A stretch of DNA of 64,000 bases from Clostridiales bacterium (GTDB taxonomy: Bacteria > Bacillota > Clostridia > Oscillospirales > CAG-272): NCBI GenBank assembly GCA_012727435.1, contig JAAYHB010000011.1:3010-67009 (forward strand). The letters run 5' to 3'. Position 1 is the stretch's first letter, and each line of letters opens with the position of its first letter. Shown here in pieces: positions 32,756 to 39,060 of the stretch. The translations under genes were made by a program, and so were the position numbers. Under the pieces are notes generated by a model. It searched no databases and was not told the origin of the DNA. It worked only from the letters and a program-made list of their open reading frames with translations.

Positions 32756-34660
32756 ATGAAAAAAAGATTAATCACCGTGCTGTTGATTCTTGTGCTGATC
32801 ATGTCTGCAGGAATAGTCCCGGCAGGCGCGGCTGGGGGCAGCAAACCTTATGACTATGCTAAATATGGACAGCAGACGCTTTCGGTGGCTTTTGGCGGCG
32901 CCACACCTATTATTGACGGCAAAGTGGGGGTCAAAGAGTATGCCAACACTCTCGTGTTTGACAAGGATACCCCCGGTGTCAGTTTCAGCGATTCCGCTTT
33001 TACCGCCTACCCTACTGATATCAAAGTACATATGACGGTCGACGAGCAGTATATTTACCTCGGGATTGAAGTTGATGAGCCGTACTACAGGTACCGCGTC
33101 GGAAGTACGGCGGGCAGTTACATGGCTTTCTCTTTCGGCTTCAATATGGGTGATATCTTTTACCATTGCATGGACCGGCAAACCCTGACCTTTCAGGTAT
33201 ATCAGGATAATACCCCGTTTTATGCAAACACGATTATGGTCTACAAACCCGACGGGACATATACGTCCACATATAACTCGGTGGTATATGCCGATGTTGC
33301 CGTAATGCGCGATGACACAAATCAGGTCACGGTTTATGAGGCCAGGCTTATAAAAGCCGAGCTGGCCGCTCTGTCGGGACTTGAAAAACTGCCGGATACC
33401 TGCTACATCCATTTTCTCAATAAATGCTTCGACTCGGCGGGAAACACGGCTGAGTTCCGTTACCGCTGCTTGCTTGACAGTGCGGCAAGGGCAGAAATTA
33501 CTGCGCAGGACGGCTGGGTCGCCACATTCGCGCCTCATCTTCTGACCTTCCTTCCCCCCAGTGACGGCACGCCATTGAGAATGGTGGATTCCTTCGGTAA
33601 TCGCATTTATAATCTAAAGGAAATTGCCTCCCCCTCGGTTTCATTCGCCAATGCTGAAAGCCATCCCCGCTTCTTGAATGACGGTAGCGAGGCGCGCTGG
33701 AGCGCGGCCGGCTATACCGGCCAAGATAAGCCCTGGGTGCAGTATGAATTCCCCTGCCGGATATCGGCTGAAGGCATCGTCATAAAGTGGTATGACGACG
33801 GCAGCGGCAACAGGGTACCGAAGGAAATCGACATTCAGTACTGGAACGGCTCTGAATTTGTTTCGGTTGTCAAAAAGGGAACATACTCCTATCCGGCAAA
33901 TACCAGAACCCTATATAAATTCAACGCAGTAGAGACTACCATCCTTCGTGTTGTCATTACACCGACCGGTACGCTTGGCGGCGACGGAAAGGGCATGCCG
34001 GCAATTGCCGAGTGGAATGTGGTGGGTTCGCTGGCCGAGGGAGCCGTGGTGCCGAAACCCGAGATGACCGGCATTTCAAGAATTGCTGTGCCCTCTGCAG
34101 CCTTTGCCTACAAGACCGACTTCGTATACAACCTCAACGACAACACCGATGCATACTGGAGTGCATACGGTTACACCGACACAAACAAGCCCTGGGTTCA
34201 GTATAAGTTACCGGTTGAAGTAGCATTGAACGGCTGTGTGGTCAGGTGGTATGATGACGGCAGCAATATCAGGGCACCGAAGTCAATCGACATACAGTAC
34301 TGGAACGGCACCGAGTTCGTGTCGGTCAATAAGATCGGAGCATATTCCTATGTCCCGAATCAGGACAACACCTATAAGTTTGAAAGTATAAACACCAGGA
34401 TACTTAGAATAGTCATAACTCCTGCCGGTGAGCTCGGCGGTGACGGAAAGGGCATGCCTGGCATTGTCGAATGGAATGTTATAGGTTACCTGCTCATGGA
34501 GTACACAAAGAACGACCTTGAGAAGACCTATATTACTTCACTCGAAAAGGAGCCAGCCACCGGTGACACTGCTGTTTTTGTCGTGGCTGTGATGGAAGTT
34601 TCCGCGGTTTCACTGGCTGCTCTGATTATCCGTCGCAGAAAGCGCTGCCGGAGCAACTGA
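32756..34660 (+). CDS. Sortase-anchored surface protein: DOMON/CBM9-like domain plus two discoidin (F5/8C, CBM32-like) repeats
   Basis: Signal peptide; two near-identical KPWVQY...WYDDG...IDIQYWNG...GDGKGMP repeats; EPATGD + hydrophobic helix + RRRKR. Confidence 0.8.
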   Translation: MKKRLITVLLILVLIMSAGIVPAGAAGGSKPYDYAKYGQQTLSVAFGGATPIIDGKVGVKEYANTLVFDKDTPGVSFSDSAFTAYPTDIKVHMTVDEQYIYLGIEVDEPYYRYRVGSTAGSYMAFSFGFNMGDIFYHCMDRQTLTFQVYQDNTPFYANTIMVYKPDGTYTSTYNSVVYADVAVMRDDTNQVTVYEARLIKAELAALSGLEKLPDTCYIHFLNKCFDSAGNTAEFRYRCLLDSAARAEITAQDGWVATFAPHLLTFLPPSDGTPLRMVDSFGNRIYNLKEIASPSVSFANAESHPRFLNDGSEARWSAAGYTGQDKPWVQYEFPCRISAEGIVIKWYDDGSGNRVPKEIDIQYWNGSEFVSVVKKGTYSYPANTRTLYKFNAVETTILRVVITPTGTLGGDGKGMPAIAEWNVVGSLAEGAVVPKPEMTGISRIAVPSAAFAYKTDFVYNLNDNTDAYWSAYGYTDTNKPWVQYKLPVEVALNGCVVRWYDDGSNIRAPKSIDIQYWNGTEFVSVNKIGAYSYVPNQDNTYKFESINTRILRIVITPAGELGGDGKGMPGIVEWNVIGYLLMEYTKNDLEKTYITSLEKEPATGDTAVFVVAVMEVSAVSLAALIIRRRKRCRSN

Positions 34661-34674
34661 AAAGAATAAAGTTG

Positions 34675-34710
34675 GCTGCCGCAAATCAAGCGATTTGCGG
34701 CAGCTTTTTT
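34675..34710 (+). terminator. Intrinsic terminator (same stem family as 56376-56410)
   Basis: GCTGCCGCAAATC-AAGC-GATTTGCGGCAGC followed by TTTTTT. Confidence 0.85.
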
Positions 34711-34805
34711 GTCCTTTGCCGTCCGGGGACAAGCTTGACAAAAAATATCCTGCGCTCTATAATGGGGGTGACGGGTTACCGAGGATTTATTGGCGGGTGG
34801 ACATT

Positions 34806-35201
34806 ATGGAGAGGGGCAAAGGCCGGGGATACCGCGATGCCGAACTTGCATTTCGGCGTTATGCCGAATACGGGCTTGACAGGCGAAGGCTTGATATGTT
34901 TGAGATCCGTGACGCCATACGCGGGTGCTGCAGCGGTCAGAGCGCATACGATATGCTGGCGGTTTACGATACCCTGCGGTTGCTTGAGGCAATCGGCCAA
35001 AAAGAGTGCGCCGATGCGGTCCGGGCGGTTTACTTTGCCGGCGGCGGGCGCAGACCCCGGCGAAATGACGTCACCTTCAGGGTCAGGCGCCATGCATATG
35101 AAAGAAACTATGACGAGAGGACCATCTACCGGCAGCTTCGGCGTGCAAAGGAAATATACCGCCTGCTCAGGTACGGCAGTTTTGTCTTTGGGCGGAGCTA
35201 G
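34806..35201 (+). CDS. Small basic protein with possible C-terminal HTH (RinA/ArpU-like)
   Basis: MERGKG...RVRRHAYERNYDERTIYRQLRRAKE resembles the sigma-region-4-like YSERT.YR helix. Confidence 0.55.
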   Translation: MERGKGRGYRDAELAFRRYAEYGLDRRRLDMFEIRDAIRGCCSGQSAYDMLAVYDTLRLLEAIGQKECADAVRAVYFAGGGRRPRRNDVTFRVRRHAYERNYDERTIYRQLRRAKEIYRLLRYGSFVFGRS

Positions 35202-35352
35202 GAAATACCGGCGGCAAAGCCGGCGCAGGAATTTCCGGCCGGGATTATTCCCGCCGGAGCTTGCGCCGGTGGCCTTGATGTGATAAAATATAAAAAACCC
35301 GCCGGTGTTTTCACACTCAACGCCGCGGGACTTGTGACGGGGAGGGGAGAGC

Positions 35353-36750
35353 ATGCTGTACGCATCGGCGGCTTTTTTGTTTTTGTTCCTGCCGCTGGCG
35401 CTCGGTATATATATGCTGGTTTCGGAACGCGCCAAAAAGTACGTGCTCCTCTCGACCGGCTTGCTTTTTTATGTTTTAGCAAACCTCGCCTCCCCGCCTG
35501 CCATTCCGGTATTTGGCGCGGTTCTTGCCCTGACCTGTCTTGCCGGCTGGGTTGTTGCCCGCACCGGCAGCCGGGTGGTGCCGCTTTGCGTGGCGGTCTT
35601 TGATATTGCCGCATTTGTGGTGCTGCGGGTGCTATATGAGGCGCCGGGTGTGAATTTCATGTTCCCGCTCGGTGCCGCGATATATATATTTGCCTCGGTG
35701 TCCTATCTTTTCGACATTCGCCGGGGCGACTGCAGGCCGGGCAGCCTAATTGACACCCTGCTTTTTCTCAGCTTTTTCCCGGTCATTGTGGCAGGCCCGG
35801 TGGTAAAATATAAGGATTTTGCAAAATACATAGGCGAGGCAAAAGTAAGCATCTTTAGCTTTGCCGGCGGGGCGCGGCTTTTTATGACCGGTTTTATCGA
35901 GACGGTCGCGGTTGCCGGGGTGACGGGCGAAGCCTACAAAACCATCATCGAGTTGAGCGGGCACAGCATTAATATCGTCCTCGGAATACTTGCCGCGGCG
36001 CTGGCGCTGCTTTCGGCATTTTTCACGATTGCAGGCTGGACCGACATGGGCGCGGGTATTTCGATGATGTTCGGGATTATGATTCCGAGAGACTGCGGCT
36101 TTGCCCCAGGGGCGCTGACCCCGCTCGGGCATTTTAACCGGATATTCCGCGGGCTCTCGGGCTGGCTTGACGATTATCTGATTTTTCCCCTGTCCCGGGT
36201 GCTCAAGCTGAGAGGAAAGCCTGCCGAATCTCTCGGGGTGTTTCTGCAGGTTGTCTTGATGTCGCTCTGGATCAGAACCACACCGGCGATGCTTATTGCC
36301 GCTTCTGTCGTGGCCTGTGCGGCCGCACTCCTTAAGCTGACCCGGGCAGATGAGGCCATTGAGCAAAAGCGTTATCTGCGGCCGCTCGGCTGGCTGCTTA
36401 CCACCGTGATCATGTCGGTTTTCTGGAGTGCGGCGACACTCGGGGGCGCGGACGAGCTTGTGTCGCTGTTCGGCAAGCTGAACCTTGCCGAGGATTTTAG
36501 GACCTACTATATCTACATTTCGCTTTCGGGCTGGGAGTTTATATCGGTTGCGGCCGCCGCGCTGCTTGTGGTCGCCCCGTTGTCCTTTTATCATGATTCC
36601 ATATTGTCGCTTATGCCGAAAAAATTCAGGACAAGCCTTGAGGCACTCTTTATGCTGGTGCTGCTCTTTGTCTTTGTATTTTGTGTCCTGTACTTCATGC
36701 CACAGTATCCGCAATATGCCGTGAGGGTATCCGATTATTTTGTGTTTTAA
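35353..36750 (+). CDS. AlgI-like MBOAT membrane protein with degenerate active site
   Basis: FLFLFLP, PLG...SYLFD.RRG, FFP...AGP, GWTDM, W..DYL.FPL are retained; FWRRWH becomes FNRIFR and LWHG becomes LWIR. Confidence 0.85.
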   Translation: MLYASAAFLFLFLPLALGIYMLVSERAKKYVLLSTGLLFYVLANLASPPAIPVFGAVLALTCLAGWVVARTGSRVVPLCVAVFDIAAFVVLRVLYEAPGVNFMFPLGAAIYIFASVSYLFDIRRGDCRPGSLIDTLLFLSFFPVIVAGPVVKYKDFAKYIGEAKVSIFSFAGGARLFMTGFIETVAVAGVTGEAYKTIIELSGHSINIVLGILAAALALLSAFFTIAGWTDMGAGISMMFGIMIPRDCGFAPGALTPLGHFNRIFRGLSGWLDDYLIFPLSRVLKLRGKPAESLGVFLQVVLMSLWIRTTPAMLIAASVVACAAALLKLTRADEAIEQKRYLRPLGWLLTTVIMSVFWSAATLGGADELVSLFGKLNLAEDFRTYYIYISLSGWEFISVAAAALLVVAPLSFYHDSILSLMPKKFRTSLEALFMLVLLFVFVFCVLYFMPQYPQYAVRVSDYFVF

Positions 36751-36770
36751 CGGCCAAAGGAGGGTGGGAC

Positions 36771-39005
36771 ATGTATAAATCCAAGTCTGTCTCGGTTGTC
36801 TGCGCCACCCTGTTTGTCGGGGTGCTCCTGTCCTGCGCCGTATATTTCGGAATAACCGCGATTATGCAGCGGGGGGACAAGGCTGACGGTATCTCGCGGG
36901 CAGAGGGCATAACCTTTTCGGTATTTTCTGATTCCTTTTATGACAACGCAAACCTGAAAAACTTCATCGGCAGGTGCGAGTACCTGCTTTTCGGCAGTCT
37001 GGGCAGTCCCGACATAATTCTCGGCAAGGACGGCTTTTTGTTTGACGCCGGAACCGAGGAGAACGGGTACAATTACCTTGAGGACTATCTCGGCCTCGGC
37101 CGGTTTTACGAGCTTGAGGCGCTGGCAAACACCATAAACATGAGATACCTCGCCTACAAAAATCAGGGGACCGACTACCTGCTTGTAGTGATACCCAACG
37201 CCCAGACGGTGTACTCTGACTATATGCCTTCTTACATCGGGCCGATGAGCGGCAGCACCAACCTGAGCCTTCTCACGGCGTATCTCAGTGACCGCGGTTA
37301 TGACTTTTTCTTAAATGCCGCGGGCGCGCTTGCTGCCGCCCGGCAGACCGACATGCGGGCGCCGCTCTACAACAATACCGAAAACTCGCTCAACTCGCTG
37401 GGCATGGGTTACCTTTTCACGGCGGTCTGCGAAAAGCTGAAAACTCTCTACGGGGTGGAGTGCAGTTATGTCGATGTACGGGCGATGGGGCTTTATACCG
37501 GCCTTACCGACGGTAAGACGCTTGCCCGCCGGGCAGGGCTTGAGTCGATAATTAAAAACAGGACGGTATCTCTCTGGGGCAGTGAGGCCGCAGGGTATTC
37601 AAGCGAGAATTATTACGGCAGCATGACAAGGACCCGACTGGATGAAAAACGGGTTACAGAGGCAAACGACAAGACCTTCTTGCTCGAATTTACCGACGAG
37701 TGGGACAAAATCCAGCTCATGTCCTTCTTCTCCAACACCTTCGGCGAGGTGATATACAAGTCAAACCAGCAGTACAGCAGCATAATTGTCAGGGACCTGC
37801 AGCCCGATATCGTAGTTCAGTTCATTCACGAGTATGAGCTCTACAACCTCATCGACTCCAATGTCACCCAGACCTACAACGCCGGGCTGCGGCTCGACAT
37901 AAATCCCCACGAAACTTCAAAGCCTATCTGCGTGGCCCAGATTGAGACCTCCGAGGGCAGGTTCTGCATTGCCGGGCAGACCGAGAACAACGCAAAGATA
38001 ACGATATCCGGCGACAATATCGTAACTGTCAGCCAGAATGCCGTCGGAAACCTGTTCTTTATTGAGGTTGACATCGGCGAGAGCCTCACCGAAACGGTGA
38101 AAATCACCGCGACGGTTGAGGGGAAAACCCCAAGCGAACCGGTCTACCTCAGGCTCAGCCGCAGCGGCGACGTGAAGCCGAGGACGGTTGCGGTAGGGAA
38201 AAATTCGGAGCTCTATTCCTCTGATTATTCATGGCTGAACTTTCTCTCCGAGACACAGCTTGAGGCGCTGCGTGCCGGGCTTGAAGAGAGGATTGCCAAA
38301 GCAAGGGAGCTCAGCGGGAAGGACACCGAGTTTATATATGTCATAGTTCCCGACAAACTGGCGGTCTACCCCGATAACGCGCCCGACTCGCTTCTTGAGG
38401 TCAGAGAGTCGGTCGAGAGATATAAGGCAATGGCAAAGGGCCTGTATGAGAGCGCCGGGATGACGGTTATCGACCTAACCCGCGGGCTGCAGGACCGCAC
38501 TGTGCTCGGCCGGCTTTTCTATCAGACCGATACCCTCTGGACCGATTTCGGCGCCTATATCGGATACAACTCGCTGGCAAGCAGAATTGCTGAGAAATTT
38601 ACGGATGTGAAGGTCATAAACCCGAACAGCTTCGGATACACAACCAAGGAAACCATCGGGGGCGAGCTGGTGAGCAGGCTGGGCATCGACGGGGCGGTTA
38701 TCAGCGAGTCATACCTTGAGATGACGCCAAGTCCTGAAATATATAAGGGTGTACAATACGCCTACAGCGGCGAGGGTGGCTTTGACATCAAGCGGGCCTT
38801 CATCACCTACGGCAGCGACAGCTCGCTCCCGGTGGCGGTGATAATGCGCGATGCCTACGGGACCGAGATGCTCGAGAATCTTGCGATGCACTTCAGCAAA
38901 ATGATAGTTCTTGCCGAGGGGCAGTTCAGCGTCGGCGACGAGCTGATAGCCGGGCAAAAACCCGATTATATAATCACCATACGCTGCAACGGCGAGCTAT
39001 CATAA
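36771..39005 (+). CDS. Membrane-anchored protein with two AlgJ/AlgX-like SGNH domains lacking catalytic residues
   Basis: AAGGAGG RBS; N-terminal TM helix; GKDGFLF, IPNAQTVY, TENSL (domain 1); VPDKLAVYP, TDTLW, RDAY (domain 2). Confidence 0.8.
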   Translation: MYKSKSVSVVCATLFVGVLLSCAVYFGITAIMQRGDKADGISRAEGITFSVFSDSFYDNANLKNFIGRCEYLLFGSLGSPDIILGKDGFLFDAGTEENGYNYLEDYLGLGRFYELEALANTINMRYLAYKNQGTDYLLVVIPNAQTVYSDYMPSYIGPMSGSTNLSLLTAYLSDRGYDFFLNAAGALAAARQTDMRAPLYNNTENSLNSLGMGYLFTAVCEKLKTLYGVECSYVDVRAMGLYTGLTDGKTLARRAGLESIIKNRTVSLWGSEAAGYSSENYYGSMTRTRLDEKRVTEANDKTFLLEFTDEWDKIQLMSFFSNTFGEVIYKSNQQYSSIIVRDLQPDIVVQFIHEYELYNLIDSNVTQTYNAGLRLDINPHETSKPICVAQIETSEGRFCIAGQTENNAKITISGDNIVTVSQNAVGNLFFIEVDIGESLTETVKITATVEGKTPSEPVYLRLSRSGDVKPRTVAVGKNSELYSSDYSWLNFLSETQLEALRAGLEERIAKARELSGKDTEFIYVIVPDKLAVYPDNAPDSLLEVRESVERYKAMAKGLYESAGMTVIDLTRGLQDRTVLGRLFYQTDTLWTDFGAYIGYNSLASRIAEKFTDVKVINPNSFGYTTKETIGGELVSRLGIDGAVISESYLEMTPSPEIYKGVQYAYSGEGGFDIKRAFITYGSDSSLPVAVIMRDAYGTEMLENLAMHFSKMIVLAEGQFSVGDELIAGQKPDYIITIRCNGELS

Positions 39006-39007
39006 AA

Positions 39008-39060
39008 AAGCGGGGCAATATGCCCCGAAAGCAAAAGGGCGGAGTTATCCGTCCTTTCCT
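39008..39060. terminator. Twin hairpins between convergent genes
   Basis: CGGGGCA-ATA-TGCCCCG and AAAGGGCGGA-GTTA-TCCGTCCTTT. Confidence 0.6.

Follow-up and report, generated by a model that had tools for sequence, protein, structure and literature searches.

How is a gene pair to be understood that has the build of a bacterial O-acylation system but lacks its catalytic residues? Pairs of a membrane-bound O-acyltransferase (MBOAT) with an SGNH-type partner are the standard bacterial route for acylating polymers of the wall and matrix, and their mechanism has been worked out only recently. In PatA/PatB, the acyl group passes from acyl-CoA by way of the MBOAT His and a C-terminal Tyr to the SGNH Ser and then to the polymer; the invariant His catalyses the acylation of the Tyr in an FxYxxF tail, which then hands the acyl group to the Ser (PMC12148441). 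The locus considered here lies in a 64,000-nucleotide stretch (hereafter the window) of contig JAAYHB010000011.1 from the metagenome-assembled genome of an uncultured Clostridiales bacterium (GCA_012727435.1; 1.78 Mb). It is a three-gene module consisting of a gene for a small Arg-rich protein of 131 amino acids, a gene for an MBOAT-fold protein without the catalytic His, and a gene for an anchored AlgX/DHHW-like partner (Table 1).

The last two genes had been proposed in an initial annotation, made from the sequence alone, to form a repurposed pair. They were described there as full-length reading frames with ribosome-binding sites and a gap of 20 bp, and every coordinate given matches the sequence; a GGAGG-type site precedes both starts. 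The 131-residue gene, the retention of the C-terminal Tyr and the inequality of the two AlgX-like domains are points absent from that annotation.

As read from the alignments, the known His-Tyr-Ser relay cannot run in the module, because it has lost the His base as well as the two Ser-His-Asp triads. The substitution rates show that the module has nevertheless been retained by purifying selection since that loss, and it has probably been turned to a job other than the acylation of sugars.

The arrangement itself is familiar. AlgI/AlgJ/AlgX, which O-acetylate alginate in Pseudomonas, and PatA/PatB, which O-acetylate peptidoglycan in Gram-negative bacteria, share its two folds and its gene logic. 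Likewise, the Gram-positive O-acetyltransferase pairs PatA1/PatB1 of Bacillus cereus and the clostridial CcsH/CcsI come from neighbouring genes, the first for an MBOAT of about 465 amino acids and the second for an N-terminally anchored extracellular protein of AlgX/DHHW fold. In contrast to PatA1/PatB1 and CcsH/CcsI, the MBOAT of the window has no catalytic His and its partner no Asp-His-Ser triad, the partner is doubled (two AlgX-like domains and an Ig-like spacer), and an Arg-rich small gene is attached. Unlike in the AlgI/AlgJ/AlgX system, no genes for polysaccharide synthase or export were found near the locus.

The missing histidines of the MBOAT-like protein

The Pfam MBOAT profile (PF03062) matches the protein with 24.2 bits, over residues 131–244 only and below the gathering cut-off of 27 bits; its orthologues bear the precomputed PF03062 label, in some cases flagged as weak. 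The best NCBIfam match is DltB (TIGR04091) with 62 bits, far under the cut-off of 375 bits. In a Foldseek search the AlphaFold2 model (mean predicted local distance difference test, pLDDT, 77.8) matches DltB best (6bug, E 3e-9), followed by PORCN and HHAT. Judged by this model, the protein is a membrane protein with a predicted MBOAT fold.

Alignment with canonical relatives places LWIRTT on xWHGAxW, with the catalytic WHG His replaced by I307 (codon ATC at 36271), HFNRIFRGLS on FWRRWHISLS, with the RWH His replaced by F265 (36145), and RDCGFAP on ENFNYPY. In the alignment with DltB (PDB 6bug), NRIF sits on NRWH. The annotated loss of the active-site set (LWIR, DCGFAP and FNRIFR) is thus borne out by these comparisons. 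Each of the 66 full-length canonical representatives examined carries His at the two family positions, while the WHG His is present in none of the 58 members of the clade to which the window protein belongs (see below). Although DltB is the best structural and NCBIfam match, both DltB His are missing in the window protein, and dltA, dltC and dltD are all absent from the locus. The His required for auto-acetylation in PatA (PMC12148441) corresponds to the Ile.

The changes extend beyond the two His. Some 35 sites whose conservation reaches 80% or more among canonical MBOATs have become relaxed in the His-less clade, including N29, S109, W212, Q221, D225, the ENFxxPY and WRRWH blocks, the GG.R block, N295, WHG, W316-G317 and E327. 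The motifs kept are of the fold type: P105-x-G107, S117..D121..R124, Y138..FFP..GP149, G173, G180, K183, G228..DM..G235 and D274-Y275..P279. Newly conserved in the clade are R92 and an insertion, P450-Q-x-P453, before the tail. The tail of the window protein reads SDYFVF, in which Tyr462 is kept and the first Phe of FxYxxF is lost.

The retained Tyr, which stands at position -4 of the window protein and is likewise kept in 11 of the 13 closest orthologue clusters, raises the alternative that the pair is still an O-acyltransferase working with non-canonical residues. Some other base, or else a canonical MBOAT in trans, would acylate Tyr462, and the acyl group would then be passed to the rebuilt site of domain 1 of the partner. 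Such cryptic transfer would accord with the persistence of S117, D121, R124, Y138, K183, D231, D274 and Y275, which are common to canonical MBOATs, and with the presence of three canonical MBOATs in the genome. However, the conservation comparison with canonical MBOATs disclosed no conserved His, Cys, Lys or other obvious candidate for a substitute base in the clade, and the nucleophile position is occupied by Ser in neither domain of the partner. Of 66 canonical proteins, 65 have the Tyr at position -4, but it is missing there in 43 of the 53 clade members compared (present in 10). Moreover, changing the His to Ala abolishes auto-acetylation of PatA, and the equivalent His is needed in DltB and other MBOATs (PMC12148441). 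Continued acyl transfer is therefore considered unlikely.

The canonical genes of the same genome are three MBOATs and one DHHW protein (TDHHW, KDSY); active-looking genes of both kinds, for which the initial annotation had proposed a check, exist elsewhere in it. One of the MBOATs, on contig C23, adjoins the DltA-like ligase gene of the genome, and it is canonical, unlike that of the module. Another is split over two contig ends (C23:1-977 and C15:26133-26749) and has an SGNH-like neighbour. The split MBOAT has FWARWH, LWHG and the tail FIYFQF; its downstream neighbour on C15 (481 amino acids) is of SGNH/DltD-type appearance with a C-terminal extension resembling leucine-rich repeats.

Age of the loss and selection since

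In a FastTree tree of 136 MBOAT representatives, taken at 50% identity, the group of His-less proteins to which that of the window belongs comes out as one clade of 58 representatives, at a Shimodaira-Hasegawa (SH)-like support of 100. The stem of the clade has a length of 0.74, and its tips lie at about 0.7–1.0 substitutions per site. In an exhaustive profile search, canonical FWRRWH/WHG proteins begin to appear only below about 200 bits. The same substitution pattern is seen in 13 orthologue clusters of the MBOAT-like protein (down to 26% identity) and in 86 homologues of the partner (down to 30%). Since the clade is single and deep and none of its 58 members has the WHG His, the loss appears to be one old event followed by long diversification. 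The tree thus indicates that the module descends from an ordinary MBOAT-SGNH O-acyltransferase pair through one ancient loss of the acyl relay.

Ratios of nonsynonymous to synonymous substitution rates (dN/dS) were computed against two orthologous loci. They are 0.23–0.27 for the MBOAT-like gene, 0.13–0.15 for the partner gene and 0.10–0.20 for the 131-residue gene. Within the partner, the values are 0.09–0.12 in domain 1, 0.14–0.20 in the Ig-like domain and 0.12–0.16 in domain 2. Loss of catalytic residues, purifying selection and phylogenetic depth, a combination to be expected of a pseudoenzyme, are all found here.

The absence of the catalytic residues would, taken alone, suit genes that were recently inactivated and are now decaying. 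Against this stand the full-length frames in dozens of lineages, the one deep clade, dN/dS values of 0.09–0.27 throughout, the synonymous changes at the E204 and E310 codons of the partner gene, the canonical MBOAT and DHHW genes that the genome has besides, and the conserved promoters and the RNA contigs over the locus that are described below. Recent decay is so improbable on these grounds that it was rejected, and the earlier judgement against decay agrees with this outcome.

It is of interest that the catalytic His has been lost several times independently. A second, unrelated type of His-less MBOAT, with RWN...LWYG (proteins P0181, P0195, P0206, P0212, P0217, P0244 and P0248), has Asn and Tyr in place of the two His, and in some of its members an FRF-type tail is retained; on the tree this type lies within the canonical MBOATs, hence the independent losses. 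HHATL, a eukaryotic MBOAT paralogue that is said to modulate HHAT, is likewise His-less and conserved. In contrast to the MBOAT of the module, HHATL is of an unrelated, eukaryotic lineage and has no SGNH partner, and the bacterial clade lost the His independently of it.

The two unequal AlgX-like domains of the partner

The partner matches the Pfam ALGX profile (PF16822) in two stretches, with 66.7 bits against a gathering cut-off of 26.5. Its AlphaFold2 model (pLDDT 87.5) consists of a transmembrane helix (about residues 5–24), an AlgX/DHHW-like domain 1 (about 75–378), an Ig-like beta-sandwich (about 385–465) and a domain 2 (about 475–744). The top fold matches of the model are AlgJ (4o8v), which is the best match in both sequence and fold, the DHHW protein 4nzk, PatB1 (5v8d and 5v8e) and AlgX (4knc).

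The signature motifs of AlgJ are hhhPxK and (R/K)TDTHW (PMC9487903). Both are lost in domain 1, which reads VVIPNAQ and NNTENSL, with IPNAQ in place of PxK; domain 2, in contrast, retains PxK as VIVPDK but reads QTDTLW. In the profile alignment of domain 1, YNNTENSLNaLGA falls on FLRTDTHWTPMGA of AlgJ (4o8v), so that E204 stands for the Asp and S206 for the His. E310, in TDEWD, is assigned to the Ser position by motif order and by the predicted strand-helix geometry (strand 302–307, helix from 310), there being no significant alignment in this part. Domain 2 was aligned by profile to the canonical DHHW protein of the same genome, TDTLW falling on TDHHW and RDAYG on KDSYA. Thus D587 is kept, L589 takes the place of the His and A695 (38853) that of the Ser, and compared with AlgJ the nucleophile Ser is replaced by Glu in domain 1 and by Ala in domain 2. 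That neither domain has an Asp-His-Ser triad, as had been concluded from TENSL (beginning at 37377), TDTLW (38526), DEW and DAY (38853), is confirmed by these assignments.

The two domains differ in what has followed the loss. In domain 2 the catalytic positions have degenerated, as seen from the residues that occupy them. Of the 40 columns that are invariant in the partner, in contrast, 32 lie in domain 1. Among the 86 homologues, W311 is present in all, D312 in 83, and E or D at position 310 in 81. The motifs of domain 1 across the family are Y200-N-N-T-E204-[N/D]-S206-[L/I]-N208..G211, E306..[D/N]-E310-W311-D312-[K/R]313, P-Y-F-S321-N-T323, Y329-[K/R]330 and Q350-F-I-[H/R]353-E354-x-E356, in which position 353 is His in 72 homologues and Arg in 11. 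The set YNNTE[N/D]S..LG, EWD[K/R] and QFI[H/R]E is near-invariant.

Domain 1 is probably the functional centre: no other part is under such strong constraint, single-domain relatives keep nothing else, and it carries rebuilt polar and aromatic motifs. These single-domain relatives (414–436 amino acids) still stand beside a His-less MBOAT. A separate role for the ectodomain is suggested by some more distant relatives with the NNTE[N/D]S-type motif that have no MBOAT gene within about 5–7 kb. Such two-domain relatives were seen in L034 (6722-11123), L042 (5790-10221), L038–L041 and L044 of the loci inspected, and two of these MBOAT-less genomes carry tandem pairs of two-domain genes for about 720–750 amino acids.

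What, then, may the module do? The reading that is preferred here, and to which about an even chance is given, is that it transfers no acyl groups at all. Domain 1, its rebuilt polar and aromatic residues forming a putative pocket, would bind a cell-surface glycan instead of acylating it, and domain 2 and the Ig-like domain would be spacers or auxiliary binding modules. The MBOAT-like protein would serve as a platform in the membrane, on which the partner probably still docks by way of the conserved Pro-rich C-terminal segment and the hydrophobic tail. The 131-residue protein would be a dedicated regulator or cytoplasmic partner of the module, a place that may be taken in other lineages by the Rrf2 or MarR protein encoded beside the pair.

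Several observations weigh against this reading. The near-invariant polar residues E204, S206, E310, D312, S321, Y329, K/R330, Q350, H/R353 and E354 may equally well be those of an enzyme, and the retained tail Tyr would be superfluous in a pure scaffold. The C-terminal part of the 131-residue protein, RVRRxAxExxxDERTVYRRLxxAKxLY, resembles a helix-turn-helix, but this motif was spotted by eye and received no support from hidden Markov model (HMM) and PDB searches. Finally, the RNA contigs consistent with transcription of the module may hold carried-over DNA, and their depth is low.

The first of these observations leads to the most serious alternative, which is thought possible but clearly less probable than glycan binding, namely that domain 1 is a new enzyme. 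E204, S206, E310 with D312, H/R353 and E354 would form a new active site, which might be that of a carboxylate-based glycan hydrolase, a lyase, a transglycosylase or a re-wired Ser-His-Glu esterase, with the MBOAT-like protein anchoring or feeding it. The strong conservation of these polar residues over sequences only 30–35% identical points this way, as do the lowest dN/dS in domain 1, the synonymous changes at the codons of E204 and E310, and the placement of H353 and E354 at a strand end in the model, as in an SGNH block. However, the switch between His and Arg at position 353 fits a role in charge or hydrogen bonding better than that of a general base, W311-D312 gives way to other residues in the wider family (variants SENER and SEKYV), and no similarity to known sites of glycoside hydrolases or lyases was found. 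Therefore, of the initial proposal of a repurposed and non-catalytic complex, the argument against decay stands, the loss being ancient and conserved, whereas "non-catalytic" is not established, domain 1 having gained a near-invariant alternative set of residues.

An old, selected and apparently transcribed clade without the relay points to a second use of the MBOAT-SGNH scaffold, be it in glycan binding, in sensing or in new chemistry of domain 1. The labels "alginate O-acetyltransferase" and "DltB" that such genes now bear are probably wrong as statements of function, and the rebuilt motifs NNTE[N/D]S, EWD[K/R] and W[ILF][RK]T offer simple markers by which these proteins may be told from active enzymes. 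A review of the SGNH proteins treats the AlgX and DHHW members as triad enzymes. Full-text searches of the literature for pseudoenzymes of the MBOAT family, bacterial MBOATs without the His, and DHHW proteins turned up no description of such a system, as the initial annotation had also stated.

The small gene, the occurrence of the module and its borders

The 131-residue protein is Arg-rich and without a transmembrane segment. No significant match was obtained for it in Pfam, NCBIfam, PHROGs and a profile search of the PDB, and an HMM scan of the whole genome found no sigma-like relatives. Its gene has 49 homologue clusters, several of which are on contigs of the same size as those of the pair or have neighbouring locus tags, and it adjoins the pair in L012, L025, L029, L036, L037 and L043. 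Since it lies upstream of the pair in genomes of the family and downstream in L012, the association appears to be functional and more than mere synteny, and the gene belongs to the module.

Of the 30 loci inspected, that of the window included, 23 have the MBOAT-like and partner genes side by side. The flanks otherwise differ from locus to locus, the recurrent neighbours being the small gene, an Rrf2 gene (sometimes with rubrerythrin) or a MarR gene; conserved neighbours for polysaccharide synthesis were not found among these loci. In many loci from which the small gene is missing, an Rrf2 gene stands immediately 3' of the pair, in some cases followed by rubrerythrin, and one locus has a MarR gene instead. 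The Rrf2 genes were seen in L008 (10355-11356), L010 (10502-11571), L014 (9257-9703), L023 (8647-9084), L027, L028 and L030; this arrangement spans several distant lineages, one of them basal, often with rubrerythrin next. It may reflect a redox-linked regulon or plain synteny.

These neighbours allow a more specific reading, which is rather improbable as it stands: the module might be a transmembrane sensor made from a dead acyltransferase. Wall or matrix glycan bound by domain 1 would be signalled through the His-less MBOAT, and the 131-residue protein, DNA-binding-like in appearance and held or released on the cytoplasmic side in the manner of an anti-sigma and sigma factor, would act on the conserved promoter of the MBOAT-like gene; the adjacent Rrf2 or MarR protein might replace it in other lineages.

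With the domain 1 profile, the module was found in 24 of 151 genomes, belonging to 15 of 97 genera, of the GTDB family of the organism. An order-wide sample gave strong matches in 3 of 201 genomes (that of the window included), all of them from the same family, and a class-wide sample one further genome among 399. The module is therefore an accessory trait of patchy spread. Such a distribution, together with the co-existence of canonical MBOATs and a DHHW protein in the genome, would suit a dominant-negative partner or decoy that competes with genuine MBOAT/DHHW systems for polymer or for partner proteins, much as HHATL is reported to do with HHAT. The co-occurrence is uninformative, however, because DHHW proteins are found in 46 of 48 genomes of the family whether the module is present or not. 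Moreover, the module is never adjacent to canonical MBOAT or DHHW genes, and the extensive, conserved remodelling of domain 1 exceeds what a decoy would need. A decoy is accordingly regarded as unlikely, and non-acylating glycan binding continues to be preferred.

Anaerobic digesters, sludge and biofilm are the sources of the DNA runs containing the locus. At 99% identity or more, all three genes are tiled by contigs from four digester metatranscriptomes, with pieces across both gene junctions (35143-35426 and 36548-36897), at a low depth comparable to that of neighbouring genes. This is consistent with transcription of the module. In one of these runs (X27, contig depth 2.6), a 2-nucleotide insertion, TA, follows position 35405 and would shift the frame of the MBOAT-like gene at about codon 18; absent from the other three runs, it could reflect either strain variation or a fault of assembly.

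Table 1. Features of the module in the window (positions are those of the window)
Feature	Position	Strand	Basis or remark
Hairpin with T-run, terminator	34674..34705	+	14-bp stem with 8 GC pairs; ends upstream gene with F5/8-type-C domains
Sigma-70-type promoter, TTGACA-17-TATAAT	34735..34763	+	12/12 matches; precedes the 131-residue gene
Gene for Arg-rich protein, 131 amino acids	34806..35201	+	tblastn; homologues linked to the pair
Promoter-like site, TTGCGC-17-TATAAAAT-type, extended -10 (TGTGATAAAAT)	35261..35289	+	Seen in the sequence
MBOAT-fold protein without catalytic His, 465 amino acids	35353..36750	+	Alignments, fold match, tree
Membrane-anchored two-domain partner, 744 amino acids, start ATG	36771..39005	+	Pfam, model, profile alignments
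Domain 1 motif N201-N202-T203-E204-N-S206-L-N208-S-L-G211	37371..37403	+	Replaces (R/K)TD(T/H)HWxxxGA; near-invariant in 86 homologues
Domain 1 motif D309-E310-W311-D312-K313	37695..37709	+	Replaces xDS(F/Y) nucleophile block
Domain 2 motif T586-D-T-L589-W590	38526..38540	+	His position varies in the family (M, L, R, G, T)
Domain 2 motif R693-D694-A695-Y-G	38847..38861	+	Glu, Ala and Ser occur at the Ser position in the family
Hairpins, bidirectional terminator	39011..39057	.	Between partner gene and convergent thioredoxin gene

The module is bordered on the left by the upstream terminator and on the right by the hairpins that follow the partner gene, beyond which the thioredoxin gene lies on the minus strand. 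Both hexamers of the promoter of the small gene are kept in the orthologous loci L014, L015 and L016. The same three loci have a counterpart of the second element, TTGC(G/A)(C/A)...TGnnA(T/A)A(A/G)AAT, and this element, directly 5' of the MBOAT-like gene, presumably acts as a promoter. Both elements are retained even at only 52% identity between the partner proteins. In the 150-nucleotide gap 5' of the MBOAT-like gene, a search of Rfam gave no match to a riboswitch or other RNA at E ≤ 1.

A link to sporulation, which had been suggested for the pair, finds no backing in these elements: both promoter-like sites are conserved and of the sigma-70 type, and no sporulation-specific control was seen in them. 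Neighbouring Peptidase_S55 genes were considered as another sign of such a link and discarded, being seen in two loci and not kept elsewhere.

The product of the upstream neighbour (32756-34660) has 634 residues and two domains of F5/8 type C (discoidin, galactose-binding-like); a strong terminator separates this gene from the module, and it is not kept beside the pair in other genomes. Just 5' of the module, several other loci have a gene for a conserved protein of about 76–80 amino acids with the motif MKxVxIxLSTIxDVxxFVxI...GRYxVDxKSIxGIFSLDL: L010 (6070-6300, minus strand), L014 (4727-4957, minus strand), L016 (3579-3809, minus strand) and L012 (5122-5364, plus strand). The copy in the genome of the window lies elsewhere, on contig C4.

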